Positions 6,961 through 61,798 of a stretch of DNA of 64,000 nucleotides are shown piece after piece (the stretch's first letter is position 1; the number at the start of each line of letters is the position of its first letter). The notes beneath the pieces were generated by a model. That model saw nothing but the letters and a program-made list of their open reading frames with translations, had not been told where the DNA came from and did not search any database. A program made the translations under genes and the position numbers. The DNA is taken from contig JABHAL010000002.1 of the NCBI GenBank assembly GCA_018674305.1, positions 1,286-65,285 of the forward strand, read 5' to 3'. The DNA is from Candidatus Falkowbacteria bacterium (GTDB lineage Bacteria; Patescibacteriota; Patescibacteriia; UBA11705; JABHMO01).

Positions 6961-7500
6961 TTATTGTTTGGTAGTATCTATAAAGACAGCCTTAAACCTT
7001 CGGCTAAATAAGTTAAACACTGCAAATAACAAAACAGAAAGAACTAAATTAAACAAAATTTGCCAGAGTAAATCATTTATAGAATTTACAGTTAAATGAT
7101 TAATCAAAGAATAGTCCTTGACCTTTATCAGGTAATTGACAGCCGTGTACATGTAGAGAAAAGCATTATAAACAATCGTGGAAATTACAGTCAGCCCAAC
7201 TAGCGTATAAAGAGATTTATTAGTAAGAAAATGTACAAATATCTTGTAGGCGACATACATTGTTAATAATAAACTAACCAGTAAAGCCCCAAAAGGCAAA
7301 GCAGAATATAAATCCAAAATTACACCTAGTATAAATGCGTAGGTAGTCCCAATTGAAAACCGACCCACCATTGAAATAAAAATCAATACTACTATCAAAA
7401 CATTAATCTTGCCTAAGTTTGCAGGAAAGAGCGCTACCATTCCTAGCTGTAGACCCGCCAATAATAAAATAAAAAAAGTGTGTTTGATTAGCTTAATCAT
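6961..7500 (-). CDS. mreD: rod shape-determining protein MreD (polytopic membrane protein)
   Basis: 179 aa with 5-6 predicted TM helices. Its position between mreC and mrdA matches the canonical operon. Confidence 0.6.
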   Translation of the reverse strand: MIKLIKHTFFILLLAGLQLGMVALFPANLGKINVLIVVLIFISMVGRFSIGTTYAFILGVILDLYSALPFGALLVSLLLTMYVAYKIFVHFLTNKSLYTLVGLTVISTIVYNAFLYMYTAVNYLIKVKDYSLINHLTVNSINDLLWQILFNLVLSVLLFAVFNLFSRRFKAVFIDTTKQ

Positions 7501-8338
7501 CGTCTTGATTATATTTCAAAATATTTACTATATTGATTTTATTGAAATCAACCATGGAGGCCAAAGCGGCCTCCTGAAACAACTCTTCTGGCTCATTAAC
7601 AATACTCTTGATCTGACCAATTACAATATTTCCCGGCACTTTTTGTTCTAAACCTGAAGTTACTATTATATCGCCCTCTTTTATCATCTCAGTCTGTGGG
7701 ATTAAACGCATTTTTATTCCCAAGCCAAACTCACCCTCTACCACCCCTATTGTTCGTGATTTATTCTGGATCCTCGCAGCTACCTTTGACAAATCATCAT
7801 TAATTAACAAAACAATAGAACTATTTTTATTGACTTTGATAATTTTGCCAATCAACATATTTTGTTCTGCTAAAACAGGCTGCCCTACCTCAATTCCGAC
7901 CTTACTTCCAACATCAAGGATCAAGGCATTTTGTGAACCGTCGGCACTTTGACCAATCACTCTAGCGATTTCAAACAAATATTGATTTTTGTCTACAAAC
8001 TGCATTTGTTCACGCAAAAATTGATTTTCTTCTTGTTCAGACACACATCTACTTTTTTCGTTAATCAGCATTGCTAATTGATCCTTCAAATCCTTATTCT
8101 CTTGGACCAAAGCTTGTTTAGACCTAAAATTCAAATAATTATCCCCCACCCAATAAGAGATTTGGTAAACTGATCTTAATACTGGTTTAGTAGCTGACAC
8201 AGCCAAATTTTCAATTGGTCTTAGAACTTTTATGTAATGTAAAAAAAACAGCAGTAGAACAATTACCACTGAAACAATAATTAATTTTGTTGATTTTCTA
8301 TTTAACATTACCATGAAAACACCAGAACACGAGAACAC
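7493..8338 (-). CDS. mreC: rod shape-determining protein MreC
   Basis: N-terminal TM segment, a coiled coil (KDLKDQLAMLINEK) and C-terminal beta domains. Located downstream of mreB. Confidence 0.75.
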   Translation of the reverse strand: MFSCSGVFMVMLNRKSTKLIIVSVVIVLLLFFLHYIKVLRPIENLAVSATKPVLRSVYQISYWVGDNYLNFRSKQALVQENKDLKDQLAMLINEKSRCVSEQEENQFLREQMQFVDKNQYLFEIARVIGQSADGSQNALILDVGSKVGIEVGQPVLAEQNMLIGKIIKVNKNSSIVLLINDDLSKVAARIQNKSRTIGVVEGEFGLGIKMRLIPQTEMIKEGDIIVTSGLEQKVPGNIVIGQIKSIVNEPEELFQEAALASMVDFNKINIVNILKYNQDDD

Positions 8339-8401: not shown

Positions 8402-9457
8402 TTACCTCACCATTTTCTCCTCATTCGCTGAAGGTAATAAAACTTGTTCCAATAATTTTTCATCATCCAAAAGTAAATTAATACCTCGAATTGTGCAGGT
8501 TGTTGGATCATCGGCTATTCTCACTGGAATTTCAGTTTCTTTACTAATAGTTTTTTCAATTCCGCGGAGCAACGATCCACCGCCACAAAGAATAATTCCT
8601 CTTTCATAAATATCAGCGACTAATTCTGGTGGAGTTATTTCCAAAACACTTTTAATTGAATCCACCACCTGGTTAACCGTTGAGGCCAATGCCTCCCTCA
8701 CCTGATAATCGTTGATCATAATCTCCCTTGGCAAACCTGTGATTAAATCCCGCCCTCTCATTTCGATAGAAATTGATTCTCCTTGTTCATGAGAAGATCC
8801 AACTTTTATTTTTATTTGCTCAGCAATCTTTTCACCAATTAACAAATTAAAGTGATCTCGAGCATATTGAATAATATTTTTACTTAAATCTTCACCAGCT
8901 ATTTTTAATGATTTCCAAATAACTACGCCGTGTAATGAGATAACTGCAATCTCAGTTTTACCACCACCCATATTTATCAACATACTACCCGAAGCATCCT
9001 GAACCGGCAGACGTGCACCAATAGCGGCGGCCATTATTTCTTCAACCAAGAAAACTTTTCCCGCTCCTGCACCCAGAGCTGCATCTTCGACAGCCTTTTT
9101 TTCTACCTCGGTAACGTCCAGAGGGATGCCAATAATCACACTAGGCCTAGCTGTAAAATTAAGATTCTCTTGGAAAATTTTGTCAAAAAAATACTTTAGC
9201 ATTTTTTCAGTTACTTCAAAATCAGAAATAACCCCTCGAACCAAGGGATATGCCAAAGTAATATATGCTGGGTTTTTGCCAACCATCTTGCGAGCATCTT
9301 CGCCCACTGCGATAATCTGATCCAAACGATTATTCACAGCTACAATTGATGGTTCACGAATAATTATTCCTTTATCCTGCAAACACAAAATTGTATTAGC
9401 TGTGCCTAAATCAATCCCAATCTTTTTTGAAAACCTATTTAAGAATTTTCTAAACAT
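8402..9457 (-). CDS. mreB: actin-like rod-shape protein MreB
   Basis: IGIDLGTANT phosphate-1 motif. 351-aa actin/Hsp70-fold ATPase. Confidence 0.9.
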   Translation of the reverse strand: MFRKFLNRFSKKIGIDLGTANTILCLQDKGIIIREPSIVAVNNRLDQIIAVGEDARKMVGKNPAYITLAYPLVRGVISDFEVTEKMLKYFFDKIFQENLNFTARPSVIIGIPLDVTEVEKKAVEDAALGAGAGKVFLVEEIMAAAIGARLPVQDASGSMLINMGGGKTEIAVISLHGVVIWKSLKIAGEDLSKNIIQYARDHFNLLIGEKIAEQIKIKVGSSHEQGESISIEMRGRDLITGLPREIMINDYQVREALASTVNQVVDSIKSVLEITPPELVADIYERGIILCGGGSLLRGIEKTISKETEIPVRIADDPTTCTIRGINLLLDDEKLLEQVLLPSANEEKMVR

Positions 9458-9476
9458 AAACTAACTCCCTGCCCTC

Positions 9477-10718
9477 CTATGTCAACTTTTTAACAATTTG
9501 ATTAAGTTTAATCAATTCCATTTTTTCTTGATTTCGTTGCTTGAATTCTATGCTTTCTTGGGCCAAGGTTTTTTCACTAACCACAATTCTATATGGCATA
9601 CCAAGTAAATCGCTATCATTCAATTTCACGCCAGCTGATTCCTCTCTATCATCATATAAAACCTCAATTCCAGCCTGCTGCAACTCATCATAGAGTTTGT
9701 CACTAACAGCCTTAATTTTAGCGTCTTTTCCAAGGAAAAGCAAATGCACCTTGAATGGAGCAATAGACTCAGGCCAAATCATACCTTTGTCGTCATGGTG
9801 AACCTCAATTACAGACCCCATAACCCTAGATGGCCCAATACCATAACAACCCATGATCACTGGTTGTTCCTTGCCATCTTTATCAGTATATTTAAAATTA
9901 AAAGCAGTACTGTATTTGGTTTTTAATGGAAAAATATTTCCAACCTCAATGGCCTTGGCCTCTAAAATTTGACCACCACATTTAGGACATTTATCGCCAA
10001 TTTTAACTTCGCAAATTTCATCATTCTGTGCAAAGTCACATTTATCGCAGTAAAAAACTGTATCTTCTCCGCTATCAGTAAAAACCTGAAACTCATGTGA
10101 GTATTTAGAAAAGTCGCCACCTGAAGCCTCCACTATTTTAGCGTTCAAACCACAACGTTTGAATACATTCAAATATGCTCCTTTGGATTTTTCATAGTAT
10201 TGCCACATGTCCTCCTCATTAAGATGAAAACTGTATAAATCTTTCATGCTAAATTCTAAACCACGCAATATTCCTGATTTAGCTCTAGGTTCATTGCGGA
10301 ACTTATCCTGAATTTGATAAACAGCCACAGGCAAGTCCTTATATGATTTAACAAACTTTTGTACCAATGGAGTAACCACTTCTTCGTGGGTCCAGCCTAA
10401 ACCATAGTCCTTTTCACTACGACCCTTAAGCTGAAACATTACCTCAGGACCTGGACTTTCCCAACGTCCAGTTTTTTGCCAGATTTCCTTTGGTGTTAAT
10501 GCCGGCATTAATATTTCCTGACCATCAATGACCTCCATTTCTTCCCTAACAATCTTTTTCACTTTATCCAAAACCCTCAATCCCAATGGTAAATATGAAT
10601 AAACTCCGGCCATTAATTTATCTACAAAACCAGCTCTAATTAATAAGCTTGCATTGGTACTGACTTCATCTTTTGGTAATTCCTTAATTGTTTTGGTGAA
10701 TAGTTTTGATTGACGCAT
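9477..10718 (-). CDS. proS: prolyl-tRNA synthetase, short form
   Basis: Class II aaRS motifs and a CDKCDF...CPKCGG zinc-binding segment. The N-terminus MRQSKLFTKTIKELPKD is typical of ProRS. Confidence 0.8.
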   Translation of the reverse strand: MRQSKLFTKTIKELPKDEVSTNASLLIRAGFVDKLMAGVYSYLPLGLRVLDKVKKIVREEMEVIDGQEILMPALTPKEIWQKTGRWESPGPEVMFQLKGRSEKDYGLGWTHEEVVTPLVQKFVKSYKDLPVAVYQIQDKFRNEPRAKSGILRGLEFSMKDLYSFHLNEEDMWQYYEKSKGAYLNVFKRCGLNAKIVEASGGDFSKYSHEFQVFTDSGEDTVFYCDKCDFAQNDEICEVKIGDKCPKCGGQILEAKAIEVGNIFPLKTKYSTAFNFKYTDKDGKEQPVIMGCYGIGPSRVMGSVIEVHHDDKGMIWPESIAPFKVHLLFLGKDAKIKAVSDKLYDELQQAGIEVLYDDREESAGVKLNDSDLLGMPYRIVVSEKTLAQESIEFKQRNQEKMELIKLNQIVKKLT

Positions 10719-11236: not shown

Positions 11237-11528
11237 TTTTCAGCTTTTTTACTATTTGACCACCAAATTTCTTGTTGATAGCCTCAATTATTGAATTTTT
11301 CTTAAAATTTAGTTCCTGAGCAATAATTGAATTAGCAGTCTCAACTTTCAAGATCTGACTCTTCAATGAAATAACTCTAACCAGCTCGTGCCCCTTTTTT
11401 CCCCAAAATTCACGCATTAAACCATTGGCAAACTCAACAACCATACCGGACATTATTTGTTTAGCCAGTGGTTTTTTCTTAAATCTAGAAAGTAATATTT
11501 TTTGTAGTGAATCCGCCATAAATTTCAA
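11202..11528 (-). CDS. DUF721 / DciA-like protein
   Basis: 108 aa. The LVRVISLKSQILKVETANSIIAQELNFKKNSIIEAINKKFG segment resembles the DUF721 core. Confidence 0.4.
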   Translation of the reverse strand: MKFMADSLQKILLSRFKKKPLAKQIMSGMVVEFANGLMREFWGKKGHELVRVISLKSQILKVETANSIIAQELNFKKNSIIEAINKKFGGQIVKKLKIVQTSIERPVY

Positions 11529-11567: not shown

Positions 11568-11596
11568 TTGACAAAATATATAATCTATGCTATAAT
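11568..11596 (+). promoter_or_regulatory. consensus promoter TTGACA, 17 nt, atGcTATAAT
   Basis: -35 at 11568-11573 and TGnTATAAT at 11588-11596. An AAGGAGG Shine-Dalgarno lies 7 nt before the ATG at 11644. Confidence 0.55.
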
Positions 11597-11643
11597 ACTA
11601 AGATTTGATGATTGAAAAATAACTTTCCCTTAAGGAGGATACC

Positions 11644-12321
11644 ATGAGAAAGTTCATCAATTTGTTTGTGATTTTAGGAATAATTATGTTTGCCAGCAAC
11701 GTGCAAGCAAAAGATGTGGATATGTCAAACTTTGACATGCGCGTGCGATTCAGCCGTGCAATAGAGTCCTGGGCGTTTCACAACTTCGATGTCCTGTTCG
11801 AGGCCAATGCATTTATCACTGACTACCAGACGATGAATGCCATGTTTGGTCTGTTGTACCACGTCGATCGGAACAGTAAACTGGTTCTGATGATTGGTCA
11901 ACAGTTGGGCGCAGGCGTGAGCAGCAACAATGTAGCTCTGACCGGTCGCTGGCATCAACGTGTAAGTCGGGTTGTAGGTTTCAAGTTGGAGGCGGATCTT
12001 TTCATTCCCATCCAGGCCAACAATGCCGAGAGCCAACCCACGGTCGGCTTCAGAACCTACGAGTCACTTGACTTTATGATCGAGCGCAGGATGTTCATCT
12101 CGCTCGGACTGGAACAGGAAAAGCTGGACAACTTCCGATATCGGTTCGGACCCAGTTTCACCTGGCAGTGGCTTCGAGTTTGGGCCGGATACCTTCATCA
12201 GGAAGAATCCGGTACAAAGCAAAGTTCCACAAATCAGCCAACGCCGGTGAACGCACAACCTCGCTGTACTGACTGCGACTGCGGAGATATGTTCTTCGCC
12301 TCAGTAGCGCTAACCTTCTAA
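11644..12321 (+). CDS. secreted protein with signal peptide; beta-barrel-like; C-terminal ...ASVALTF
   Basis: Signal peptide MRKFINLFVILGIIMFASNVQA|KD, alternating amphipathic strands and a C-terminal aromatic residue. Gene GC is ~50% versus ~33% in the flanks. Confidence 0.55.
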   Translation: MRKFINLFVILGIIMFASNVQAKDVDMSNFDMRVRFSRAIESWAFHNFDVLFEANAFITDYQTMNAMFGLLYHVDRNSKLVLMIGQQLGAGVSSNNVALTGRWHQRVSRVVGFKLEADLFIPIQANNAESQPTVGFRTYESLDFMIERRMFISLGLEQEKLDNFRYRFGPSFTWQWLRVWAGYLHQEESGTKQSSTNQPTPVNAQPRCTDCDCGDMFFASVALTF

Positions 12322-12439
12322 TTTCTGACCGCAACGGTCAAGAAAAACTCTTCAATGCATCTATTGGGGAGTTTTTTTGTCCATTAAAACATAAAAACAT
12401 GAAAGCATTAAAGCAATTACAGTAAATGTTCTGATGTTT

Positions 12440-13531
12440 TTATGTTTCAATGTAATTCAGCTTCTTAAACACTGCCACTAAAATATTCTCCAAAAATTGA
12501 TCTCGGGTATGAATATCAATGTCCTTATCTACACCTTCATCTTTTTCCATATAACGCCACATTTTCTTTTTCTTATCCCACAAATCAGTATTCTTCATCC
12601 GACACCAATCTATTTCACCCTCGTCTGGATCTTCAACTAACCCATGGGCCAAGCTTCCTAGAAGCTGCACCCTTGATACGTAGGAATCAGCCTCATCTGA
12701 CAATTGATCATTCCACATACCCTCCGCTTCTTGGTAACTGACTTTTTTCAAGTCACGATAAACCTGCTCAGCTTTTTCTTGATTACCTAAAAAATATTCA
12801 ACTATAACTTGAAGTAAATAGTTTTCAGTCATTTGACTTGAATCTTCACCAAATTCACCTACTCTATTCATCCAAACTTCTGCCTCAACGTCATATAACT
12901 CGCTTTGCTGTATCTCACTATAAAAATCCTTAGCTCTTGCCATCTGTCCATCAAACACAAATGCCAGGACGCCATAAAGCTGTGAATTACAATAAAAATT
13001 TTCTGGTCCATCAAATCTATGTTTATATAAACCATCACTCTTGCACCTAATATCAATTAAGTGCAGAAAGCTATCCGTAAAACGCTCTTGCGGCTTAATT
13101 AAATTCATATTAATTGCAGATAAAAACTGTGTAGCTGAAGTTACCCGACTGACACCTGATTCAGATTCAACGAAATCATCCCATAATCCGGTATCGCCAT
13201 AAGCCGTTGTTTTAAATAACCTACCTGTATTTTCTTTGACTTCCTCTGATGGCCCGCTTCGTAGCTTTTCTAATAATTCATTTGGCTTCATCAACGGAAA
13301 AAATTCCTTAGTTTCAATAAAATTAACGATTTGTTCTTTTTTTGTTATATAGTCCCGCATTACCTGAAGTGCCTCCTTACTTCCCGCTTCCGCCTTCGCC
13401 TTAAGCTCAGCAAAACCTAAACCGCCTGAAATCACTTCTAACTCAGACATTAATTTATCAAAATGACGTTGCTGAACTTCAGTGAAGCTAGCGTGGAGTG
13501 CTTTTTCTTGTAATTCGGATTCAATTTTCAT
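12440..13531 (-). CDS. hypothetical protein, member 1 of a tandem three-gene family (conserved 76-aa N-domain, variable C-domain)
   Basis: 363 aa. The N-terminus MKIESELQEKALHASFTEVQQRHFDKLMSELEVISGGLGFAELKAKAEAGSKEALQVMRDYITKKE is near-identical to those of 13553..14284 and 14295..15407. Confidence 0.6.
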   Translation of the reverse strand: MKIESELQEKALHASFTEVQQRHFDKLMSELEVISGGLGFAELKAKAEAGSKEALQVMRDYITKKEQIVNFIETKEFFPLMKPNELLEKLRSGPSEEVKENTGRLFKTTAYGDTGLWDDFVESESGVSRVTSATQFLSAINMNLIKPQERFTDSFLHLIDIRCKSDGLYKHRFDGPENFYCNSQLYGVLAFVFDGQMARAKDFYSEIQQSELYDVEAEVWMNRVGEFGEDSSQMTENYLLQVIVEYFLGNQEKAEQVYRDLKKVSYQEAEGMWNDQLSDEADSYVSRVQLLGSLAHGLVEDPDEGEIDWCRMKNTDLWDKKKKMWRYMEKDEGVDKDIDIHTRDQFLENILVAVFKKLNYIET

Positions 13532-13552
13532 AAACCAACTTTATAATTCAAT

Positions 13553-14284
13553 TTATTCAGGAAAATATAGCATATAATTATGTTTTCTTGAAGATAGCTC
13601 CCCAGTCTGTAATTCTGCTTCGACATGTACCCTTACTTGCTCAGGCTCATTATTAATATGCTCGACTGCTGTTATGCTTATTGATGTGACTTCTTCTTTA
13701 TCAAGCAAAGATTGCAATCGACTACCGACAATGTTTTCTGGATTCCTCTTACTCTTATCAAGTTGATAATGTTTATGCAATTCTAATCCAAAAATCGACT
13801 TAACAGCCAACGTAGTGATAAAACCGTTCAAAACTTGTTGAACATGATCAGTCTTAATTAATTGATCTGAAAAAAGCCAAAGCGGAGTATTGTCAAGCAT
13901 TTTTACTTTATAGAGTAATCCACGACTATCCTCTTGGGTAACTTCTTCAACTTCACACATCTTCCCATGGTATGGTTTACCTGGATGCCAAACCATCCCC
14001 TCATCACCAACACCAATAAAATATGACTTCCACTCTAAATTAGTCCCTAAAGGTATTTCTTTAGTTTCAATGAATTCAACAATCTTTTCTTTCTTAGCGA
14101 TATAATCACGCATTACTTGAAGCGCCTCTTTATCCCCTGCTTCTGCCTTTGCCTTAAGCTCAGCAAACCCAAAACCATCTGAGATTACTTCCAACTCAGA
14201 CATTAATTTATCAAAATGACGTTGCTGAACTTCGGTGAAGCTAGCATGAAGTGCGCGTTCTTGTATTTGCTCTAGTGATTTCAT
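13553..14284 (-). CDS. hypothetical protein, member 2 of the family (different C-terminal domain)
   Basis: 243 aa. It shares the N-domain, but its C-domain is unrelated to members 1 and 3. Confidence 0.6.
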   Translation of the reverse strand: MKSLEQIQERALHASFTEVQQRHFDKLMSELEVISDGFGFAELKAKAEAGDKEALQVMRDYIAKKEKIVEFIETKEIPLGTNLEWKSYFIGVGDEGMVWHPGKPYHGKMCEVEEVTQEDSRGLLYKVKMLDNTPLWLFSDQLIKTDHVQQVLNGFITTLAVKSIFGLELHKHYQLDKSKRNPENIVGSRLQSLLDKEEVTSISITAVEHINNEPEQVRVHVEAELQTGELSSRKHNYMLYFPE

Positions 14285-14294
14285 TTTATAATAG

Positions 14295-15407
14295 TTAATT
14301 TTTTATTTTTAATTTCTCGAAAATCGCAGTTAAAATAATATCCATTAACTCATCCGAAGTATTATAACCTTTTACACTGTTCTCTGTAGCTCGCCAACAA
14401 CCAGACTCAGGCTCAACCCAACGTGGGTCTTTTTTTAATTCCTGCCATTTTTCTTTTGCCTCATAGGGACTACCCAAAATGGCTTCAGCCATGATACCCA
14501 TTAGTTGATCAGTTGAAGTTCTCTCTACCTCTTCATCGTGATGATGGTAATTAGACTGTTTCCAACCAAGTTTTGGATCATAATATTCCTGTTTAAGATT
14601 TCCAAATCCCTGTCGAGCTTCTTCTTCCTGACCAAGAAAAAAGTTTACTAATTGATACAAAAGTTGATCTTTAGAATACAAACTTAAATCAGTAAAGTTT
14701 AATGTTTTATTTTGAGTTGTATCTGGGGTCACACTAGTAAACCATGAATCAAACTCTTCCATATAAAACTTAAGTTTCTTTAAATCTGACAAGCGCTGAC
14801 CAGCAGTATCAGCAAGATCATTTTTGGGCTGGATCAAAACCATCAAAATACTCAAAAATTGCCCTTCAGCATCATACTCTTCAACCCCAAGACTCAGATC
14901 GGCACAATTATATAGCCTGTTTTCTCGGTTATACATTTTACTTTCCCACGGCTGTGTTATTGAAGTTTGTATGTCACCTGTCAATTGGCCTGCCAATTCA
15001 AGAAGAACACAATTCCTATGGGTCACTGCATTACCTACCCCACCAAGTTTTTGGGTTAACATTTGCTTTTGCTTATCAAAGGCTGAAGTATATAACAATA
15101 CTTGTAATTTTTCTTTGGCTTTTTCAGCTGTGCCTTCATTTAAAATATTTCGCATAGTTTCAGCGTCTATATATGGCATTCGCTTGGTTTCAATAAACTC
15201 CACAATTTTTTCTTTCTTTGTAATGTAATCCCGCATAATTTGAAGTGCTTCTTTACTACCCAACTCAGCCTTTGCTTTAAGATCAGCAAATCCTAAACCA
15301 CCTGAAATCACTTCTAATTCAGACATTAATTTGTCAAAATGTTGTTGCTGAGCCCTATTAAAGTCAACCTTTAGTGCACTTTCCTGAATTTGTTCTAATG
15401 TTTTCAT
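14295..15407 (-). CDS. hypothetical protein, member 3 of the family
   Basis: 370 aa. The N-domain is shared, and the C-terminal third resembles member 1 (FFLGQEEEARQGF... versus FLGNQEKAEQVY...). It starts 4 nt after the helicase stop. Confidence 0.6.
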   Translation of the reverse strand: MKTLEQIQESALKVDFNRAQQQHFDKLMSELEVISGGLGFADLKAKAELGSKEALQIMRDYITKKEKIVEFIETKRMPYIDAETMRNILNEGTAEKAKEKLQVLLYTSAFDKQKQMLTQKLGGVGNAVTHRNCVLLELAGQLTGDIQTSITQPWESKMYNRENRLYNCADLSLGVEEYDAEGQFLSILMVLIQPKNDLADTAGQRLSDLKKLKFYMEEFDSWFTSVTPDTTQNKTLNFTDLSLYSKDQLLYQLVNFFLGQEEEARQGFGNLKQEYYDPKLGWKQSNYHHHDEEVERTSTDQLMGIMAEAILGSPYEAKEKWQELKKDPRWVEPESGCWRATENSVKGYNTSDELMDIILTAIFEKLKIKN

Positions 15408-19915: not shown

Positions 19916-20767
19916 TTACAAACGGCGTCGTCGCCCACTGGTATTTGACTGCCAGTAAGGATCAACGGTAACTGTTGAGGTCTCATCTTCGACTAATACT
20001 TCAGACTCAAACTCATCTTCTTCGATTGCTACTTCGACCTCGTCCGCATCAACAAGGATCATACTTTCGATTTCATCAATGATAACATCCTCATCATCAA
20101 GAATAATAGGATCTAGCACTTCGACTTCATCCGCATCAACAAGGATAACACCCGCGTCATCATCGTAATCAAGAATAATCTCATCGGGATTTGGTCCGAC
20201 TTCAATTTCACTTGGATGATCGTCAGTTGTGTCAACCATGACACCTTCATCTTCTTCAGGCTCAGGCGTAACTTCAGGCGCCTCAGCTCTGTTAGCCTTG
20301 GCGCCTTGGCTAAAATCCGGCGGTCCACCGTGGGCAGTCACCCCAATTGAAGTGTCTTCAGTAAAGTCAACCACCCTCCAACGTTCGCCATCAAACACGG
20401 CCAGCTTGACCCAGACAGTCAATTTGGGATGCTTGCGCTTGATGTTAGCAACAGCTTTTTCCAGATCAGCTTTGTAAGCTTTACGCTCAGCTGCTCGATC
20501 TCTGAACTTTTGAGTTCCACCATAAGCGCCACAATCATCATGAGCAACCAAGTAAACCTCAGTTACTCCATGTAGATCAACTGACAAGTTTACCATCTTC
20601 ATGGTACTGTCACGAGTTATTACATCGGCCAACATTTTCTGTCCACCAGGAATTGTGACTACATCACAATCGTCCCGTAGTCCATTATCAATCATGAACT
20701 TGTGAACAGCACCTTGGATCCTAAAATCCATACATGTAACCAATAAAGAAGCACAGTTATGCGACAT
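19916..20767 (-). CDS. beta-class carbonic anhydrase (Cab-type) with a long acidic, repetitive C-terminal tail
   Basis: CMDFR (CxDxR) and HDDCGAYGG (HxxCG) zinc-ligand motifs. The C-terminal ~140 aa are D/E-rich with ILVDADEVEV repeated, ending in RRRRL. The gene body is GC-rich (~48%). The start is placed at the MSHNC aligned with the paralog. Confidence 0.55.
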   Translation of the reverse strand: MSHNCASLLVTCMDFRIQGAVHKFMIDNGLRDDCDVVTIPGGQKMLADVITRDSTMKMVNLSVDLHGVTEVYLVAHDDCGAYGGTQKFRDRAAERKAYKADLEKAVANIKRKHPKLTVWVKLAVFDGERWRVVDFTEDTSIGVTAHGGPPDFSQGAKANRAEAPEVTPEPEEDEGVMVDTTDDHPSEIEVGPNPDEIILDYDDDAGVILVDADEVEVLDPIILDDEDVIIDEIESMILVDADEVEVAIEEDEFESEVLVEDETSTVTVDPYWQSNTSGRRRRL

Positions 20768-20851
20768 TTTTTCCCTCCTGTGTAAAGAACTTGACTGATT
20801 GTAAAGTTTAGCACATATTATAATATTGTCAAGTACTATTGCAAAATAACT

Positions 20852-20880
20852 CAAAAAAGCCCCTTTAGGGGCTTTTAACG
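20852..20880 (-). terminator. rho-independent terminator
   Basis: gcccc-taaa-ggggc followed by TTTTTT on the minus strand, after the 20887..21297 stop. Confidence 0.55.
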
Positions 20881-31556: not shown

Positions 31557-31585
31557 TTGACAAGATTATAGATTTATGCTATAAT
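31557..31585 (+). promoter_or_regulatory. consensus promoter TTGACA, 17 nt, atGcTATAAT
   Basis: -35 at 31557-31562 and -10 at 31580-31585 with an upstream TGn. It has the same architecture as the promoters at 488 and 11568. Confidence 0.55.
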
Positions 31586-31591
31586 GTGGCT

Positions 31592-31767
31592 ACATGTTTC
31601 ATAGAAAAAACTATTGTCGAAAAAAGGAGGTGAACCATGGGGGCATGGCGGAGAAATACCGCAGTTGGTCAAAGTTAACTCGGTGTAACGAGTCACAGGC
31701 CAATAAGCCCAACAATCTACAGAAACAACACATCGCGCCCCGATCAACGTCGGGGCGCACTATTTTT
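31592..31767 (+). ncRNA. short transcript unit of ~175 nt containing a 13-codon SD-led ORF and ending in a strong terminator; candidate sRNA or leader peptide
   Basis: AAGGAGGTGAACC-ATG opens MGAWRRNTAVGQS* (31637..31678). The terminator is gcgccccga-tcaacg-tcggggcgc plus TTTTT at 31735-31767. GC is elevated. Confidence 0.4.
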
Positions 31768-31785
31768 AAATTATCCACAATCGTA

Positions 31786-31814
31786 TTGACTCTCGTAATT
31801 TGACATGATATTAT
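31786..31814 (+). promoter_or_regulatory. second promoter TTGACT, 17 nt, TATTAT
   Basis: -35 at 31786-31791 and -10 at 31809-31814. It drives the GC-rich ORF-free segment 31820-32110. Confidence 0.45.
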
Positions 31815-31819
31815 ATAAA

Positions 31820-32110
31820 AGCCTTTTGAGGAGAAAGGCAAAGGTAAAACTGATTTTGAAAACTGAAGGAGGGAATCACGCTTAAACCTACAATTAGAGC
31901 GAGTAATTAAGGTCAAATGGCCTTACCACTACGAGTTGACGTCAACGTAACGTCCCGTAGGGAAAAAAACAAAGCACCGCGCTAGGCACACAATCTTTGG
32001 AAAGAGGAATAGACAGCTTGTCTGTCAATCCCGATAAGGCAACCTGTCATCCACAAGATGAAAGGAAAACAAGATTGGTCCAATAAAGCCGGTGCATTTT
32101 TTTACAAAAA
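31820..32110 (+). ncRNA. candidate noncoding RNA of ~290 nt, GC-rich and ORF-free; unclassified
   Basis: No plus-strand ORF. Contains the perfect palindrome gttgacgtcaac plus several hairpins. It lies antisense-downstream of a minus-strand gene terminator. Confidence 0.3.
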
Positions 32111-32116
32111 ATTAAA

Positions 32117-32150
32117 AGGAGACTTTTTGTTGCAAAAAGCCTCCCTTGAT
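32117..32150 (-). terminator. terminator of the 87-aa Cys-rich gene
   Basis: ggaggcttttt-gcaac-aaaaagtctcc followed by a T-run on the minus strand. Confidence 0.45.
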
Positions 32151-32160
32151 AACGTATCAT

Positions 32161-32424
32161 TCACCTAGCACATTCTTCACACTGACCACAATCACATTCG
32201 TTAACATTAATTTCCCTGATTGGCCGAATCATTACAGTTTCTTCAATATTAACTAGCGCACCTGTTTCGACATGAACAGCACAACAAACTTCACCTGTTT
32301 CTCCATCAATCAACTGATGACGTTCCGGAATTTTCAGAAACAAATCCTCCTGAGTGCCAGACTCATTAAGCTTAAACAACGTTGTACCATGCTCCTCCGC
32401 GTCAAGATCAGCAAAACAGATCAT
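32161..32424 (-). CDS. small acidic protein with a C-terminal CDCGQCEEC cysteine cluster
   Basis: 87-aa ORF; a probable metal-binding site at the C-terminus. Confidence 0.4.
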   Translation of the reverse strand: MICFADLDAEEHGTTLFKLNESGTQEDLFLKIPERHQLIDGETGEVCCAVHVETGALVNIEETVMIRPIREINVNECDCGQCEECAR

Positions 32425-46402: not shown

Positions 46403-46951
46403 ATGCGACATCATACAATATGTTTTTTTACATTAATATTTCTTCTTTGTTTACCCACCTGCAACAAAAGAGATGCAAAAAAGGAAACTAAGGAAAAATA
46501 TGAAACTGTAATTTCCTTAATGGAAAAACTACATGAGAAGCATGTCAACATTGACAACACAATAAAAAAGTTCAAAGACAAAAAAACTGAATTCAAAAAA
46601 GCCATCAAAGGGATTAAATCCAAACGTGGAATTTCGTCTTATGCTGAGGCAGAAAACAACAAGCCTTTAATGATCCATCTAACAGCCTACCAAAAAGTTG
46701 AAGCATATTTAAAAATACTTAAGGAAGAAGATAAAAAAACTGAACAAGCCGCCATTGAATTATATGGTATTCAGATGCAACTTGAGCTTGACATTGAAAT
46801 GCTTGAAAGCATAGAAAATGCCGACCTGGAAGAAACACTTAAGCAATTGAATTTAGTGATTGACAAAATCCAGCCTACAGCAGATAACCTGGTATTAAAT
46901 GATGAAAACACACCCAAAACGCCACTAGAAAAACTTTTCAATGAACTTTGA
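46403..46951 (+). CDS. lipoprotein carrying the shared domain; cassette member 2
   Basis: MRHHTICFFTLIFLLCLPTCNK lipobox-like signal. Domain ...YQKVEAYLKIL...LELDIEML...VIDKIQPTADNLVLNDENTPKTPLEKLFNE. Terminator at 46964-46993. Confidence 0.6.
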   Translation: MRHHTICFFTLIFLLCLPTCNKRDAKKETKEKYETVISLMEKLHEKHVNIDNTIKKFKDKKTEFKKAIKGIKSKRGISSYAEAENNKPLMIHLTAYQKVEAYLKILKEEDKKTEQAAIELYGIQMQLELDIEMLESIENADLEETLKQLNLVIDKIQPTADNLVLNDENTPKTPLEKLFNEL

Positions 46952-47066
46952 AAACAACTCATCAAAACCAGCACCACACCGTGCTGGTTTTTTCATTGAC
47001 AAATCATAAAAAATAAGGGAAAATAACCTAATTGGACTTTGACAACAACCCATTGAGGAGGCCTTA

Positions 47067-48887
47067 ATGAAACATTACTTGAATACAATAGTTCTCCTAC
47101 TTGTTATTATTTTCTTCTCGGTGACCTGCAGTAAAAATGAACAGCCAAATGAAGTCATAGATTCAAAACCCAACAGCTCCGCTAAACTACTTGCTAAATT
47201 CAAGCACACACAAGCAGTTTATGGAATTGACTGGCATCCTGATGGAAAACTAATTGCATCTAGACACTACCGAGACACAGCTTTCATCTGGAACACTGAA
47301 AACAAAACTCGACAATTTGTTCATGATGGCAAGCAACTCACCGACATAAAATTCAGTACTGATGGTAGTTACTTAGCCTTTATTGATCACGAAATTTCTA
47401 AATATAGCTGTCAGCGCGAATGTCGTTACTCTGACTATGAACGTTGCAATGACTGCAAGAAAAAACACGAGAACGATTACGATGTGAGATTCTTGTCAAA
47501 AGTCTACGACCTTAGACTAAAACATTACTTAAAAGAAATAGCAAGTGGCTCCGCTCAAACAATCTCAGCTGACCTCAAGGTATATGTCACCCACGCTCTC
47601 GATTCAAAAATAATCTACTTTGATGGGACATACTTCTTTTCCTCCAGCAGTCGTGCAGGGATGGAGACTTTCATAGAGTCTAGTTCGAAAAATCACTTTT
47701 TTCATGAAGTAAAAAGTTATTCTGTGCGAAAAACAGAAGAAACAAAAGAAGGAAATACACACCTCGGCGCAATGACAATTTTCTTGTCCACAAAAGGAAA
47801 TCTGTTAAAGATTTTCAATCAAGCCGACGACGGGAAGGGGCCTCATTGTTCCATAAAACAATGCAGTCATGATTACAAAATTATGGCTGCAGAGTGGCAA
47901 CCCGGAACTAAGAAAATAACAGTTTTAAGTTCTGACAACATTCTAAGTCTTTGGGATAGTTGTTTCTCAGGTAAACAGCTTTACACCTACAATCACTCTG
48001 GCAGTGAAGCAGTGACCCTAAAATGGAATGTATCAGGTGATGTTCTGGCAGTTCAATTCATGAACAATATTTTACTGTTCAATGAAAAATTGGAACTCCA
48101 AAAAACACTGGATATTATGAGTAATGATATTGCCTGGAACAAAGATGGCAATATTTTAGCAGTCATTACCAAAAATAAAATTTATTTTTGGGACAACCTG
48201 AATTCGAATCTAACTTTTCATGAAAGTTCAGAAAAAATTAATGATTTTGCCTGGAATCCGGAATTCAATCAATTCGCCCTGGCGACTGAAGTGAATGACG
48301 ACGAAGGCTTTGTAGAAATTTGGGAGATTGACTCTTCTTATAGAATCATCGTCGCCAACAAAAAGAGAACTTCCAATAATACAGAACATCAGCTGACAAT
48401 CAAAGAAGAAACAGTAAAAAAATTAACCACTGTTCGCTCTCTCATAAAACAATTACAAAAAAAGGAAGAATCACTATCAGATGATCTTCGATCCTTCCAA
48501 ACTGACGTAGACAGATACAAATCAACAATCACTGACTTGAAACTACACAACAATATTGCAAGCTATAAAGAAGCGGTCAAGAATGACCGGATAAACAATT
48601 ATCTTGTAGCGATGCAAAAAGCTTTGGCCTACATGGACTTTATTAAACATGAGCTTTTAACTACTAGCAAAAGTTTAGTGGAGTCTGAAGGCACTCAATT
48701 ACAACTGGAGCTTGATGCAAAAATTCTGGACAGCTTAGACGAGAACAAATTGGACCAGATGATTGCTCAATTGGACTTGGTTATCACAAAAATTCAACCA
48801 AACGCCCAGGAACTCGTGATTAAAGAAAATGACACACAAAAAATACCATTAGAAAAACTATACAATGAGTATTTTGAAGATGAGTAG
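47067..48887 (+). CDS. lipoprotein with an N-terminal beta-propeller (WD40/PD40-like) and the C-terminal shared domain; cassette member 3
   Basis: Signal peptide with SVTC|S. Repeated WHPDGKLIAS / FSTDGSYLAF / WNVSGDVLAV / WNKDGNILAV blades. C-terminus ...AMQKALAYMDFI...LELDAKIL...VITKIQPNAQELVIKENDTQKIPLEKLYNEY. Terminator at 48895-48923. Confidence 0.6.
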   Translation: MKHYLNTIVLLLVIIFFSVTCSKNEQPNEVIDSKPNSSAKLLAKFKHTQAVYGIDWHPDGKLIASRHYRDTAFIWNTENKTRQFVHDGKQLTDIKFSTDGSYLAFIDHEISKYSCQRECRYSDYERCNDCKKKHENDYDVRFLSKVYDLRLKHYLKEIASGSAQTISADLKVYVTHALDSKIIYFDGTYFFSSSSRAGMETFIESSSKNHFFHEVKSYSVRKTEETKEGNTHLGAMTIFLSTKGNLLKIFNQADDGKGPHCSIKQCSHDYKIMAAEWQPGTKKITVLSSDNILSLWDSCFSGKQLYTYNHSGSEAVTLKWNVSGDVLAVQFMNNILLFNEKLELQKTLDIMSNDIAWNKDGNILAVITKNKIYFWDNLNSNLTFHESSEKINDFAWNPEFNQFALATEVNDDEGFVEIWEIDSSYRIIVANKKRTSNNTEHQLTIKEETVKKLTTVRSLIKQLQKKEESLSDDLRSFQTDVDRYKSTITDLKLHNNIASYKEAVKNDRINNYLVAMQKALAYMDFIKHELLTTSKSLVESEGTQLQLELDAKILDSLDENKLDQMIAQLDLVITKIQPNAQELVIKENDTQKIPLEKLYNEYFEDE

Positions 48888-48998
48888 ATAACACAAACCA
48901 GCACCACACCGTGCTGGTTTTATTATTGACAATAACGTAAAATATTAGTAAGATACAATGATTATGAACTTTTACAACAAAATGACAAGGAGGCCCAA

Positions 48999-51218
48999 AT
49001 GTCCAGATGGCTAAAGACAATTATTACTGTTATTATTATCATTTTTGCTTGTTCTTGTAACAAAGACAAAAAGGCCAAGAAAAATAAGTCAACTCGTCCT
49101 GAAGTCGCTGAAAAAAACTCCCCTAACTCCAATACTGAACCAGCTCCCCTCTCACAAGAAAAAGAAGCTCCACCAAAGTCAAAAAAAGAAATTTCCGAAG
49201 AAAAGCTTGAACATGTAAAGCATCTTCGCAGAAAACTCGAAAGAAAAGAAAGAACCTTGGCTGGCGCACTTATTACATACAAAGACAAAATTTCTATTTT
49301 TGTTCAAGAAATCAAACAAGAACGTAACCGTAGAAACTTGGTTGAATACAATCAGGCAATTTCAAGTAATTCAATCAAGCATAATCTCGAGGCAATTCAA
49401 AAAGCTGAGGCCTACTGGGGAATTACTAATAGGGAAAAAGTAAAAACAAAACTGGCAATTGTCGACGCAGAAGGAACTGAAAAACTACTTGATCTAGACA
49501 TCACCATGTTTAGCACCATGCCTGAAGATGAAATCGACAAACTACTTGATGAACTTGACCTTGTAATTAATAGAATCCAACCGACAGCCAGAGATCTTGT
49601 TATCACAGACAAGGAAACTGTGCTTACTCCTCTTGATGAGATTTACGAAAAACATATTCGTAAAGAGGAACGTGAGCGAGAAAAAAAGGAAATTGAGCGT
49701 AAAAAAAAAGCTGAAGCTGACCGGTTAGAACGAGAGCGTCAGGTAAAACTAGCAAAAGAAAAAGCGTTAGCAGATACCCAGGCTCGTGCAGCCCTTAATG
49801 CTGAAGCTCGTCGCCAAGCGTTAATTGCTAGGAAACAAGCCGATGAAGAGGCTGCTAGTCAAGAGAGGACTGCCAGACTACAAGCAATCGCCGAGGCTAC
49901 ACGCCAAGCAAAAATTGCCAGACAGCAAATAACAGCCGAAGAAAACCGCATAGCTGATGAAGTAGTAAAACAAATTGAGTATAAGAAACGCGAAGCTGAA
50001 AATCGTGCCCGAGAAAAAGCTGCTGAACTTGCTAGTAAGCAAAAAACAGCAGCAGCGATTGCTAACATCAAAATTATCAAACCCACTATCTGGACTTCTA
50101 TTGCATATTACAGACCTGGGGGTGATGGTGCAGGTTACATCCGTTGGTCAAATGATAGCAAAGCAGTGGCTATCACCACCTCATCAAAAATGACTATTAA
50201 GGGTGTTCCTCAAAGCACAACTTATGAGCTTGAATCTAATTACGATAACAGCGACTATATAACCGACATGATCTGGTCTCAAAGCAAAACCAAAATTGCA
50301 ATCTATTATTCACATTCTTGTGCACTGGAAAGAGGAAACGCCAAGATTGCAATTTACTCGTTAACAAATGATAAAGAGCTCTGGAGGGTGGAAGTCGAAT
50401 GCTCCCAAGCCGCTAGTTTCCTTGGTTGGTTTGGTGATTATATTGTCCTTAAAGCATCCGCTGGGTACAGTAGAAATTTTCACATTTACATTATCAATAC
50501 GAAAACCAAGAAAACTCAATCATTCACAGCTGACGCGATAACCCCAGTAAACAACTCCTCTGTCTTTGCTGCAAGCTCAAAAAGAATAATCCAAGTCAGT
50601 CTTTCTGACAGAACAATTCTAAAAGAGTTTAAGTTTTGTCGAGATGATGACGAGTCTCTTTATTATTCTTTTTGCCCAGGAGAGATTGACATTCATAAAC
50701 TCGCCTACACGAGCGGGCATCTAATTTCATCAGAGTCGCCACAAAACGGAGAAAGTAGCTTCTCCATTTGGGACACAACTTCTGGAAATAAACTCCACTG
50801 GTTTAAAGGTGACGAACCAAGAGATCTTTGGTGGCTAAAAGACGGCAAAACAGCAGTTATTGCTTTGTCGTCTGGCACAATTTTTACAGTAAATGCGAAA
50901 AGTGGATCAATTTACGAGAAAAAGCTCGTAGATGGTGCGATTGGCTTTTATGGCTATAATGTAAACACTTGGTCCACTAAAAAACCTCATCTTGTTATCA
51001 ATAAAAATTCTCCTCAGCACGAAACAGCTCTTAATGAAAAAGCAGGTTCGTACAATACTCTCTTTGTCATGGATATTAGGGACCAACAAACAAAGGCCGT
51101 CTTGGTTATGGAGTCAGATATCTCAGATTCTGTCAGACTTTCATGGAGCCCAAACGGCAAGTACCTCGCAATTGGAGACAAGGGACTCCTTCATGTTTTC
51201 AATGTAAGCAATATTTGA
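48999..51218 (+). CDS. lipoprotein with the shared domain, a long charged coiled-coil and a C-terminal beta-propeller; cassette member 4
   Basis: Signal peptide with FACSC|NK. Central AIQKAEAYWGI...LDLDITMF...VINRIQPTARDLVITDKETVLTPLDEIYEK. A ~150-aa E/K/R/A-rich helix follows, then WSNDSKAVAI / WSQSKTKIAIYY / WLKDGKTAVIAL / WSPNGKYLAIGD blades. Terminator at 51223-51251. Confidence 0.6.
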   Translation: MSRWLKTIITVIIIIFACSCNKDKKAKKNKSTRPEVAEKNSPNSNTEPAPLSQEKEAPPKSKKEISEEKLEHVKHLRRKLERKERTLAGALITYKDKISIFVQEIKQERNRRNLVEYNQAISSNSIKHNLEAIQKAEAYWGITNREKVKTKLAIVDAEGTEKLLDLDITMFSTMPEDEIDKLLDELDLVINRIQPTARDLVITDKETVLTPLDEIYEKHIRKEEREREKKEIERKKKAEADRLERERQVKLAKEKALADTQARAALNAEARRQALIARKQADEEAASQERTARLQAIAEATRQAKIARQQITAEENRIADEVVKQIEYKKREAENRAREKAAELASKQKTAAAIANIKIIKPTIWTSIAYYRPGGDGAGYIRWSNDSKAVAITTSSKMTIKGVPQSTTYELESNYDNSDYITDMIWSQSKTKIAIYYSHSCALERGNAKIAIYSLTNDKELWRVEVECSQAASFLGWFGDYIVLKASAGYSRNFHIYIINTKTKKTQSFTADAITPVNNSSVFAASSKRIIQVSLSDRTILKEFKFCRDDDESLYYSFCPGEIDIHKLAYTSGHLISSESPQNGESSFSIWDTTSGNKLHWFKGDEPRDLWWLKDGKTAVIALSSGTIFTVNAKSGSIYEKKLVDGAIGFYGYNVNTWSTKKPHLVINKNSPQHETALNEKAGSYNTLFVMDIRDQQTKAVLVMESDISDSVRLSWSPNGKYLAIGDKGLLHVFNVSNI

Positions 51219-55338: not shown

Positions 55339-55707
55339 TCACAACTGTTTTTGAATTGATTTTATCAAACCATTTATAAGTCTTTTCACCTCATCTGCAT
55401 GATTTACTAACTCTTCACAAAAACTGCTTTCTAATATATTAAGACCTCTTGAAACAAGTAAAAAACTTTGCACTTCTGACAACGAACCCCTCGCTTGATA
55501 ATAAAATCGAATCTTATCTTTGAAATAATAGCGAGAAAATCCTTCAGCAATGTTGGCGGTGATCGATATTGAAGCTCTTCGGATTTGACTTATAAGTCCA
55601 AATTTTTCTTCAGCAGGAAAATCCGATGTCACCTCATAAACTTTTAAAGTAAATTTATATGCACGTTGCCAAGCCTTTAAATCGTAATAATTATTTATTT
55701 TATTCAT
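55339..55707 (-). CDS. four-helix-bundle protein (TIGR02436 family, '23S rRNA intervening-sequence protein')
   Basis: DLKAWQRAYKFTLKVYEVTSDFPAEEKFGLISQIRRASISITANIAEGFSRY is the canonical family signature. Confidence 0.75.
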   Translation of the reverse strand: MNKINNYYDLKAWQRAYKFTLKVYEVTSDFPAEEKFGLISQIRRASISITANIAEGFSRYYFKDKIRFYYQARGSLSEVQSFLLVSRGLNILESSFCEELVNHADEVKRLINGLIKSIQKQL

Positions 55708-61399: not shown

Positions 61400-61798
61400 T
61401 CAAACCTTTTTACCATCCAAAGAACTAGTTATCTTTTGAAAAATAAATACTAATTCTTGGACTTCATTTGCTAAATACTCTATTTTTTGTTTTCTACTAG
61501 AAACAGCCTTCTTCATCATACGTAACCAATGCTTTGTTTCCTGCGCTTCCTTTTTACAAATATAAATTTTATTACGAAAATCTTTTTTTGAACTAGCACC
61601 ATTTGCTTCCATATAATTCGCCCCAATAGAAGTTCCTGAACGAAGCAGCTGGTTCAATATTGGACGATTCATAAAACATTGTTGTATATTCTGGCACAAA
61701 TCAATAATATCCTCGCCGAACTTGGCAGTTCTTTCTTCTAAATCATATTTATTATTTTTTTTGTTATTATCAGTAATCATATTTGAAAATTTTATCAT
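61400..61798 (-). CDS. four-helix-bundle protein (TIGR02436 family), second copy
   Basis: YDLEERTAKFGEDIIDLC...LLRSGTSIGANYMEANGASSKKDFRNKIYICKKEAQETKHWLRM is the family signature. Confidence 0.7.
   Translation of the reverse strand: MIKFSNMITDNNKKNNKYDLEERTAKFGEDIIDLCQNIQQCFMNRPILNQLLRSGTSIGANYMEANGASSKKDFRNKIYICKKEAQETKHWLRMMKKAVSSRKQKIEYLANEVQELVFIFQKITSSLDGKKV

Follow-up and report, generated by a model that had tools for sequence, protein, structure and literature searches.

The gene described here, designated F1, lies in a 64,000-nucleotide stretch (the window) of contig JABHAL010000002.1 from a Candidatus Falkowbacteria bacterium, and encodes a 225-residue protein with a signal peptide and a predicted beta-barrel of the outer-membrane type. 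The gene is richer in guanine plus cytosine (GC) than its neighbours, and this excess is a codon-level bias, located at third codon positions (GC3) and mainly in C-ending codons, which is kept in every lineage that carries the gene and is not foreign DNA. F1 is vertically inherited and lineage-restricted, and its GC3 excess is conserved despite the saturation of synonymous sites. Falkowbacteria belong to the Parcubacteria group of the Patescibacteria, or Candidate Phyla Radiation (CPR), which the literature describes as monoderm bacteria without an outer membrane. The reading preferred here, with moderate confidence, is that F1 is an old, lineage-specific and strongly expressed gene for a major surface barrel, whose composition is maintained for high output.

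The 225-residue open reading frame (ORF), which a first-pass annotation had reported from the sequence alone, is a real gene (Table 1). Public collections list the identical protein as 'hypothetical protein HN858_00875 [Candidatus Falkowbacteria bacterium]', and it occurs in 53 blocks of an assembly collection; 20 further places share the neighbourhood of the gene. Contigs from two other samples match the window at 100% identity, over 12,678 bases (L003) and 8,754 bases (L005), and both run through the two boundaries of the gene with no break, so the chimeric assembly that the same annotation had asked about is excluded. Another contig (L004) diverges from the window at position 11370, which is within dciA, 270 bases upstream of F1, and not at the GC boundary. 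Positions 1-3258 of L004 stand in for everything to the left of that point and encode a BrxB (bacteriophage exclusion, BREX) protein; either the strain differs here by having a defence island, or the assembly of that sample contains a join.

GC is 0.52-0.54 within the gene and 0.30-0.33 on both flanks when it is profiled in 300-nucleotide segments, and F1 is among the five stretches of the window that reach 0.46. The GC islet of the first-pass annotation persists on recomputation, since the values are not uniform: the gene has a GC of 0.494, against 0.358 +/- 0.035 in the other 53 ORFs of the window (z = 3.9), and its GC3 is also far from theirs, which is 0.296 +/- 0.054 (z = 5.6). The first and second codon positions show only a mild rise.

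Searched exhaustively with HMMER, 1.84 billion representative proteins yield five members of the F1 family (P0001 to P0005), which have 24-48% identity to the query, and a profile search of 5.8 billion sequences gives no F1 member beyond these five. Each protein has 217-235 residues and a signal peptide, 24 positions are invariant across the five, and the ORF is intact in the four other lineages. Four of the five genes, including that of the window, are at one locus, which is formed by mreB-mreC-mreD/PBP2, proS, dciA, the F1 gene and an AddA-like helicase-nuclease of 986-998 residues. The three other genes at this locus come from related low-GC genomes (L006, L009 and L012, those with enough flanking sequence), and the strand of F1 is always opposite to that of the neighbouring genes. 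The fifth gene (L001) adjoins rmuC on a short contig. Among the genomes that carry F1, identity is 80-87% for MreB and 63-71% for AddA but 27-47% for F1, which is thus a resident gene of this related clade that evolves fast.

In relatives, the gap between dciA and AddA contains further genes of the same kind. One or two extra + strand genes, F2 and X, which have their own consensus promoters, a GC of 0.56-0.62 and a GC3 of 0.72-0.88, are found there in L006, L009/L011, L012/L013 and L016. F2 has 204-211 residues, a signal peptide and 16 database members, and hhalign identifies it as a remote F1 paralogue (probability 95%, E = 2.4e-8, 181 columns). X has about 350 residues, a signal peptide, a 'GGGPPQKF' N-terminus and a cluster of cysteine and acidic residues (CEVCDECNEYECDECDICVCEICDE). 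The islet content at the shared locus varies between F1 alone, F2+F1, F2+X+F1, F2+F1+X and F2+X, and in some genomes (L001, L014 and L019) F1 or F2 is also present away from the dciA/AddA locus. A search for related loci with the F2 alignment gives one GTDB genome (L016). When the window is searched by tblastn with F2 and X, only the F1 gene is matched, so the islet of this genome consists of F1 alone.

In place of F2 and X, the window has three mutually related genes of ordinary GC between F1 and the helicase (12440..15407, - strand). These tandem paralogues encode proteins of 363, 243 and 370 residues, which share an N-terminal domain of about 70 residues (…LEQIQE.ALHASFTEVQQRHFDKLMSELEVIS.G.GFAELKAKAE…), and one stretch of 210 nucleotides is 84% identical between two of them. 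In relatives that lack these paralogues, the helicase comes directly after F1 (L006, L012) or X comes after F1 (L009). In the GC-rich stretches of L009, automatic gene calling has picked the wrong strand or reading frame. Two of the sequences carry doubtful names: L016 (CAZMEQ010000005.1) is labelled 'uncultured Gammaproteobacteria', has about 40% GC and the mreBCD-proS-dciA...AddA synteny, and its label looks wrong; P0021/L014 (DATION010000007.1) is labelled 'Candidatus Udaeobacter' and lies on a contig of about 40% GC. Neither of these two records with diderm labels provides a homologue from a GC-rich genome.

None of these proteins belongs to a described family in the libraries searched. 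Pfam, NCBIfam and PHROGs have no match for F1, F2, X or the three paralogues downstream of F1, and for all 21 F1 and F2 members Pfam gives none even at E <= 5; F1 thus matches none of the families that the first-pass annotation had named as candidates, which were OmpW, DUF2490 and the generic outer-membrane protein (OMP) beta-barrel. The best hit of a sequence profile search of the PDB is irrelevant (E = 0.64), tblastn against 50,697 phage records gives no match, and in the literature searched no paper was found that describes beta-barrel proteins in CPR bacteria. The F1 family, together with F2 and X, is undescribed in these libraries and this literature, and is unusual in its host lineage, in its strand number and in its maintained GC3-rich coding.

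The composition of F1 is common to all its carriers. Gene GC is 0.49-0.55 and GC3 is 0.55-0.70 in the five F1 lineages, compared with a GC of 0.35-0.41 for the rest of the locus, and the excess is limited to the coding sequence, being strongest at third positions, with AT-rich promoters and spacers. At four-fold sites of identical residues in MreB, ProRS and AddA, identity between these genomes is 0.30-0.46, compared with 0.28-0.34 for independent draws. Synonymous sites are therefore saturated between them, so that a leftover GC3 surplus would have decayed, and the surplus is actively maintained in each lineage. No F1 homologue is found in any GC-rich genome among the 1.84 billion and 5.8 billion sequences, no transfer RNA (tRNA) gene is present in the window, and the flanks of F1 contain only short AT-rich chance repeats and no mobility gene.

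The bias is carried mostly by C. Third-position C increases from 0.107 in the window background to 0.33 in F1 of the window, 0.40 in its orthologues and 0.51 in F2, and third-position G goes only from 0.18 to 0.24-0.29. The largest codon shifts are found in the pyrimidine-ending two-fold boxes (TTC, TAC, AAC, ATC and GAC) and in CTG, AAG and CAG. The fraction NNC/(NNC+NNT) is 0.60 in F1, the maximum of the window, and in L006 and L012 it reaches 0.78-0.88 in F1, F2 and X versus 0.13-0.23 in housekeeping neighbours. Preference for NNC codons, which form a Watson-Crick pair with G34 tRNAs, is a classical mark of selection in genes of high expression, and an almost universal one. In L019, a relative with 48% GC, the genes of superoxide dismutase (SOD), AhpC and ribosome recycling factor (RRF) have NNC fractions of 0.55-0.65, which are between the background (0.30-0.46) and F2 (0.84), as an expression gradient would predict. 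Selection for high output is probably the cause of the codon bias of F1.

Each of the five F1 coding sequences also folds more stably than its synonymous shuffles (z = -2.8 to -5.0; -2.3 to -4.7 with block shuffles). Some controls (z = -2.3 to -3.4) and other GC-rich genes (-2.6 to -5.1) do so as well, and block shuffles do not separate the groups, so a role of the GC in messenger structure or stability is suggestive but not specific.

The F1 promoter, which is of the sigma-70 type, is the genome's own promoter consensus at full strength. The first-pass annotation had described it as a perfect extended -10 promoter of the strongest kind in the window, and the match is indeed complete (12 of 12 positions, with the TG), but it is not unique, as a second perfect TTGACA-17-TGcTATAAT copy lies at 31557..31585. 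Sites with at most two mismatches number 12 in the window, versus 1.3 expected by chance. Transcription is predicted to start at about position 11603, which gives a 5' untranslated region of about 40 nucleotides, and the perfect AAGGAGG Shine-Dalgarno reported in the same annotation is present within it. When the sequences upstream of ten genes from different genomes (five F1, five F2) are aligned, TTGAC and TGnTA..T do not vary and keep consensus spacing, and GGAGG-type ribosome-binding sites line up after them; outside these elements the upstream sequence is unconserved. The near-perfect promoter has outlasted a divergence great enough to randomise synonymous sites, which points to selection that has continued to favour strong transcription. 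The terminator, which the first-pass annotation had not mentioned and which comes directly after the stop codon, has a minimum free energy of -24.1 kcal/mol (z = -5.35; none of 200 shuffles is as stable), and terminator-like hairpins with T-runs are also found 3' of F1 orthologues. With promoter, ribosome-binding site and terminator around it, F1 is therefore a monocistronic, self-contained unit, and to judge from these signals it appears to be built for strong expression.

The F1 product begins with a leader that has the n-, h- and c-regions of a Sec-type signal peptide (MRK, a hydrophobic core and VQA) and no lipobox cysteine. Hydrophobic N-terminal leaders are present in all F1 and F2 members, most of them ending in small residues of the A-x-A type, and in the AlphaFold2 (AF2) model the F1 leader is a detached helix of residues 2-17. 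The sequence rule and the equivalent leaders across the family agree with the cleavable signal peptide of the first-pass annotation.

AF2 gives the same topology with 5 F1 sequences (predicted local distance difference test, pLDDT, 72) and with 21 F1 and F2 sequences (pLDDT 84.2, predicted template modelling score 0.75, most strands above 90). The model consists of the signal helix and 11 strands, each 10-14 residues long and most of them connected through short turns (residues 30-41, 48-58, 62-75, 78-90, 96-106, 111-122, 135-147, 150-160, 164-174, 177-186 and 214-224), so that the whole mature chain is one barrel with no central helix or core. A low-confidence linker of 27 residues, which contains a cysteine motif, precedes the last strand. 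Of its cysteines, C211 and C213 do not vary among the five F1 proteins, each of which has a third cysteine as well, and F2 lacks both linker and motif. Family-wide, all 11 strands have one hydrophobic face (mean Kyte-Doolittle values of +1.1 to +3.3) and one polar face (-0.1 to -2.2). The invariant charged or polar residues are R35, Q62, Q86, R102, Q105, E116, R137, E157 and E159, of which R35, Q86, R102, E116, R137, E157 and E159 are on polar faces, which fits a lined lumen. The chain ends in ...SVALTF; four of the five F1 proteins close with F, preceded by hydrophobic residues in alternation (positions -3 and -5), and P0004 and most F2 proteins close with L.

The best Foldseek matches of both AF2 models in the PDB are NanC and KdgM, with E = 5e-4 to 1e-3, probability 1.00 and template modelling (TM) scores of 0.43-0.48. 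PcoB is in the same E range, and with FadL and OmpG these top matches have probability 1.00 and TM-scores of 0.43-0.49; intimin/invasin, autotransporter and BamA barrels and VDAC/Tom40 are matched as well. The top 50 matches are outer-membrane or organelle barrels and two designed transmembrane barrels, and include no soluble barrel. The first-pass annotation had suggested that the protein could be a toxin or an adhesin, and no pore-forming-toxin fold (aerolysin, haemolysin or cholesterol-dependent cytolysin) is among these matches. A fold search of BFVD also gives OMP-like barrels (best E = 5.5e-3). At the level of fold class, these models and matches support the outer-membrane-type beta-barrel that the first-pass annotation had proposed. 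That annotation had also remarked on an OMP-like protein in a lineage regarded as lacking an outer membrane, which agrees with how the literature describes CPR bacteria.

For the expression level of F1, the cause of its bias, its cellular location and its function as pore or anchor, we infer the following scheme. The self-contained gene would produce a Sec-exported, membrane-type barrel of about 200 residues, with a hydrophobic exterior and an interior lined by conserved charged and polar residues. F1, F2 and X would be among the most abundant proteins of the cell, and their codon bias and expression signals would be held by selection for high output. The F1 barrel would sit beyond the symbiont's cytoplasmic membrane, inserted in a layer of lipid or lipid-like material, where it may act as a small pore or as an envelope anchor, which is the role of major outer-membrane proteins in diderm bacteria.

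The gene architecture of the major OMPs of diderm bacteria is well established, and F1 resembles genes of the OmpA, OmpX and porin type in being monocistronic, in its strong promoter and ribosome-binding site, its terminator and its codon bias, and further in the tandem paralogues, the fast-evolving sequence, the signal peptide and the C-terminal aromatic residue. This architecture favours an own outer lipid or protein-lipid layer in the producer. Unlike those proteins, F1 has no sequence relationship to them and no periplasmic or peptidoglycan-binding domain, and comes from a group described as monoderm. The KdgM/NanC porins (PDB 4fqe, 4pr7, 2wjq and 2wjr), the best fold match, are single-domain barrels of about 200 residues with short loops and a polar lumen. 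They differ from F1 in having 12 strands, not the 11 predicted here, and in coming from diderm Proteobacteria with a beta-barrel assembly machinery (BAM) pathway; the TM-scores of 0.43-0.48 go with 9-12% identity, and F1 has no match to the Pfam KdgM model. VDAC/Tom40, with 19 strands and hence one parallel seam, shares an odd strand number with the F1 prediction and appears among the Foldseek matches at low TM-scores (0.15-0.28), but these eukaryotic proteins are much larger, and an N-terminal helix lies inside their pore. The chlamydial outer-membrane complex is formed by the MOMP barrel and the cysteine-rich OmcA and OmcB proteins. F1 is similarly a barrel with a CxxCxC motif, and the adjacent X of relatives is rich in cysteine and acidic residues, so that F1 and X could, purely by analogy, build an envelope lattice linked through disulfides or metals; there is no homology, and X is absent from the window.

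Several observations weigh against the reading of F1 as a major surface barrel. No outer-membrane biogenesis gene, BAM (Omp85) assembly genes included, is seen in the roughly 85 kb scanned (the 64-kb window and about 20 kb of flanks), and as no outer membrane is described for the lineage either, the home membrane of the barrel is not established. The predicted number of 11 strands, which alignment also gives for F2, is odd and unusual among bacterial outer-membrane proteins, and it would imply termini on opposite sides or one parallel seam. As the TM-scores are below 0.5, they support the fold class and no specific family. The enolase, phosphoglycerate kinase and ATP-synthase genes of the window genome have no C-ending bias (NNC fraction 0.16-0.22), and ordinary translational selection in this genome is weak at best; no ribosomal-protein or EF-Tu gene that could serve as a codon reference is found when the window is extended by 10 kb on each side. 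The G-ending codons AAG, CAG and GAG rise too, which is not a universal mark of translational selection, and the position of F1 on the C-rich strand explains part of its third-position C excess, the other + strand genes having NNC fractions of 0.35-0.47.

The main alternative is that the monoderm symbiont secretes the F1 barrel into the membrane of an attached host, as a nutrient channel or attachment point; with a diderm host this would be its outer membrane, and the BAM machinery of the host might be used. We regard this as unlikely, though with a fair amount to recommend it: an outer-membrane-type fold with a beta-signal-like C-terminus (...x-Phi-x-Phi-x-F) occurs in a lineage reported without an outer membrane, F1 evolves fast, as expected of an interface protein, and CPR bacteria are reported as episymbionts that penetrate hosts and feed on host cells or their RNA. 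Neisseria PorB and Chlamydia OmpA are reported as bacterial OMPs that relocate into host organelle membranes, which offers a precedent for a bacterial barrel inserted and assembled in the barrel-competent membrane of another organism (PMC12757748, PMC12890168). PorB and OmpA, however, are first in the outer membrane of their own producer and travel in vesicles, and no outer membrane is known in the producer of F1. An unfolded barrel would also have to be released outside a monoderm cell with no known chaperone route, no soluble form like that of pore-forming toxins is predicted, and a structural protein would go no less well with expression signals that look constitutive and very high.

It is less probable still that the islet was acquired once, by the ancestor of the clade, from a GC-richer source, and that its GC3 was then held by a non-adaptive process, such as GC-biased gene conversion where a surface-protein locus is prone to recombination, or by repeated replacement from a shared gene pool. 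The variable islet content at one locus, the presence of F1 or F2 elsewhere in L001, L014 and L019, and a composition common to unrelated islet proteins would agree with such a history. The protein databases searched have no homologue in GC-rich genomes, however, and the restriction of the excess to coding sequence, strongest at third positions between AT-rich promoters and spacers, speaks against it; the C-dominated pattern is unlike the balanced third-position G and C signature of a donor, and the P0001 protein is invariant across many samples.

That F1 is a soluble secreted or wall-associated barrel, such as a ligand binder, or that the barrel model is wrong, so that the protein is not membrane-embedded, we hold to be improbable. 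The shallow alignment of 21 sequences, the odd strand count, the TM-scores below 0.5 and the lack of a known outer membrane in the lineage leave some room for it. Against it, all 11 strands have a strongly hydrophobic and a polar face, the invariant residues are charged or polar as in lined lumens, no soluble barrel is found in the Foldseek top 50, and no central helix or core is predicted.

The first-pass annotation had proposed horizontal acquisition from a diderm donor, which is taken here as a recent transfer of this single gene. The atypical GC and the outer-membrane-type fold are what such a transfer would produce, and still it is very improbable: orthologues in diverged relatives stand at the same locus and are all GC3-rich, four-fold sites are saturated, no donor homologue exists among the sequences searched, no tRNA gene, integrase or flanking repeat accompanies the gene, and its promoter is conserved family-wide and matches the consensus of the genome itself. 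Hardly credible is a segment that is primarily a structured RNA, or a messenger with a second structural role, in which the ORF is incidental: in AT-rich genomes, a GC-rich island that has a strong promoter and terminator often proves to be an RNA gene, and the coding sequence is more stable than synonymous shuffles in all five orthologues, but controls and other GC-rich genes fold comparably, Rfam has no match inside F1 at E <= 1 and none in the window at gathering scores, and the intact ORF keeps its signal peptide, strand pattern and conserved residues at 27-47% identity. Recent transfer, structured RNA and mis-assembly are thus contradicted by synteny with saturation, by ORF conservation and by identical contigs, respectively.

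Table 1. Coordinates of the F1 gene, its signals and protein features in the window, and of the F2 and X islet genes on the contigs of relatives.
Feature	Position	Strand	Description
Sigma-70-type promoter	11568..11596	+	TTGACA (11568-11573), 17-nt spacer, TGcTATAAT extended -10 (11588-11596); 12/12 match with TG
Shine-Dalgarno	11632..11638	+	AAGGAGG, 5 nt ahead of ATG; read from sequence
F1-family coding sequence	11644..12321	+	225 aa, ATG start, GC 0.494, GC3 0.597
Sec-type signal peptide	11644..11709	+	Residues 1-22, MRKFINLFVILGIIMFASNVQA followed by KD; cleavage after VQA, V-x-A at -3/-1; read by rule from sequence
Beta-barrel domain	11731..12315	+	11 predicted strands; AF2
C-x-x-C-x-C-G-[DN] motif	12265..12282	+	C208, C211, C213; linker before last strand; F1 alignment
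Intrinsic terminator	12326..12378	+	Short hairpin 12326-12340 and 17-bp hairpin 12341-12378, U-run at end
F2/X islet, L006	5635-7671		
F2/X islet, L012	7212-7844		
F2/X islet, L016	5932-7697		
F2/X islet, L009	~7170-7900 and 8790-9800		

The window has other features of composition. A second compositional outlier (62680-63948, - strand), which has a GC of 0.50, a GC3 of 0.51 and a Major Vault Protein shoulder domain, runs past the end of the window; on a longer contig (L018, 5754-8654) its full product has 966 residues with Vault_3 and MVP_shoulder domains, so that this is a vault-protein-like gene in a CPR genome. The gene of a putative carbonic anhydrase (Pro_CA_2; 19916-20854, - strand) has an internal GC peak of 0.51 at 20051-20600 and a GC of 0.44 otherwise. 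Third positions show a window-wide strand asymmetry, with NNC/(NNC+NNT) of 0.35-0.47 and low NNG in + strand genes and 0.08-0.34 in - strand genes; the asymmetry matches the strongly negative GC skew of the + strand, and the GC-rich vault-like gene, at 0.41 on the - strand, is an exception to it.

Downstream of the second perfect promoter copy, on the + strand, lie AAAGGAGGTGAACC-ATG, a micro-ORF of 13 codons and a GC hairpin with a T-run (~31736-31770). A further promoter-like site at 31786-31814 (+) is followed by about 300 nucleotides with no ORF and by a T-run near 32100. Rfam has no family match for the region 31557-32120 (the best hit, E = 0.03, is irrelevant), which is a candidate for unannotated small RNAs or a leader peptide on the + strand. 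An 87-residue ORF at 32161-32424 (- strand), which has no signal peptide, ends in ...NECDCGQCEECAR, a cysteine and acidic motif like the C-x-x-C-x-C-G-D of F1 and the cluster of X, a likeness that may be a coincidence. The + strand genes at 46403-51218 have lipoprotein-like leaders, with a cysteine shortly past the hydrophobic core, and include two large WD40 beta-propeller proteins of 606 and 739 residues. Small proteins of the 23S_rRNA_IVP family are encoded at 55339-55707 and 61400-61798 (both - strand), and the first of these also matches bAvd, a family associated with diversity-generating retroelements.

For composition-based calls of gene transfer, F1 is a caution, as it illustrates that high GC within an AT-rich genome can mark a long-established gene with an actively maintained composition. 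Membrane beta-barrels of the F1 type are a hallmark of outer membranes, and CPR bacteria are treated as monoderm in models of outer-membrane gain and loss. There is a small but real chance that this CPR clade makes outer-membrane-type barrels of the F1 and F2 kind as its most strongly expressed surface proteins, either in an outer layer so far unseen or as feeding pores in host membranes. If the barrel is indeed directed to the host, adaptation to a role across cells might explain the un-CPR-like codon usage, the beta-signal, and the consensus promoter and ribosome-binding site. F1, with F2 and the cysteine-rich X, offers a handle on the envelope make-up of these uncultured symbionts and on how they contact and tap their hosts.

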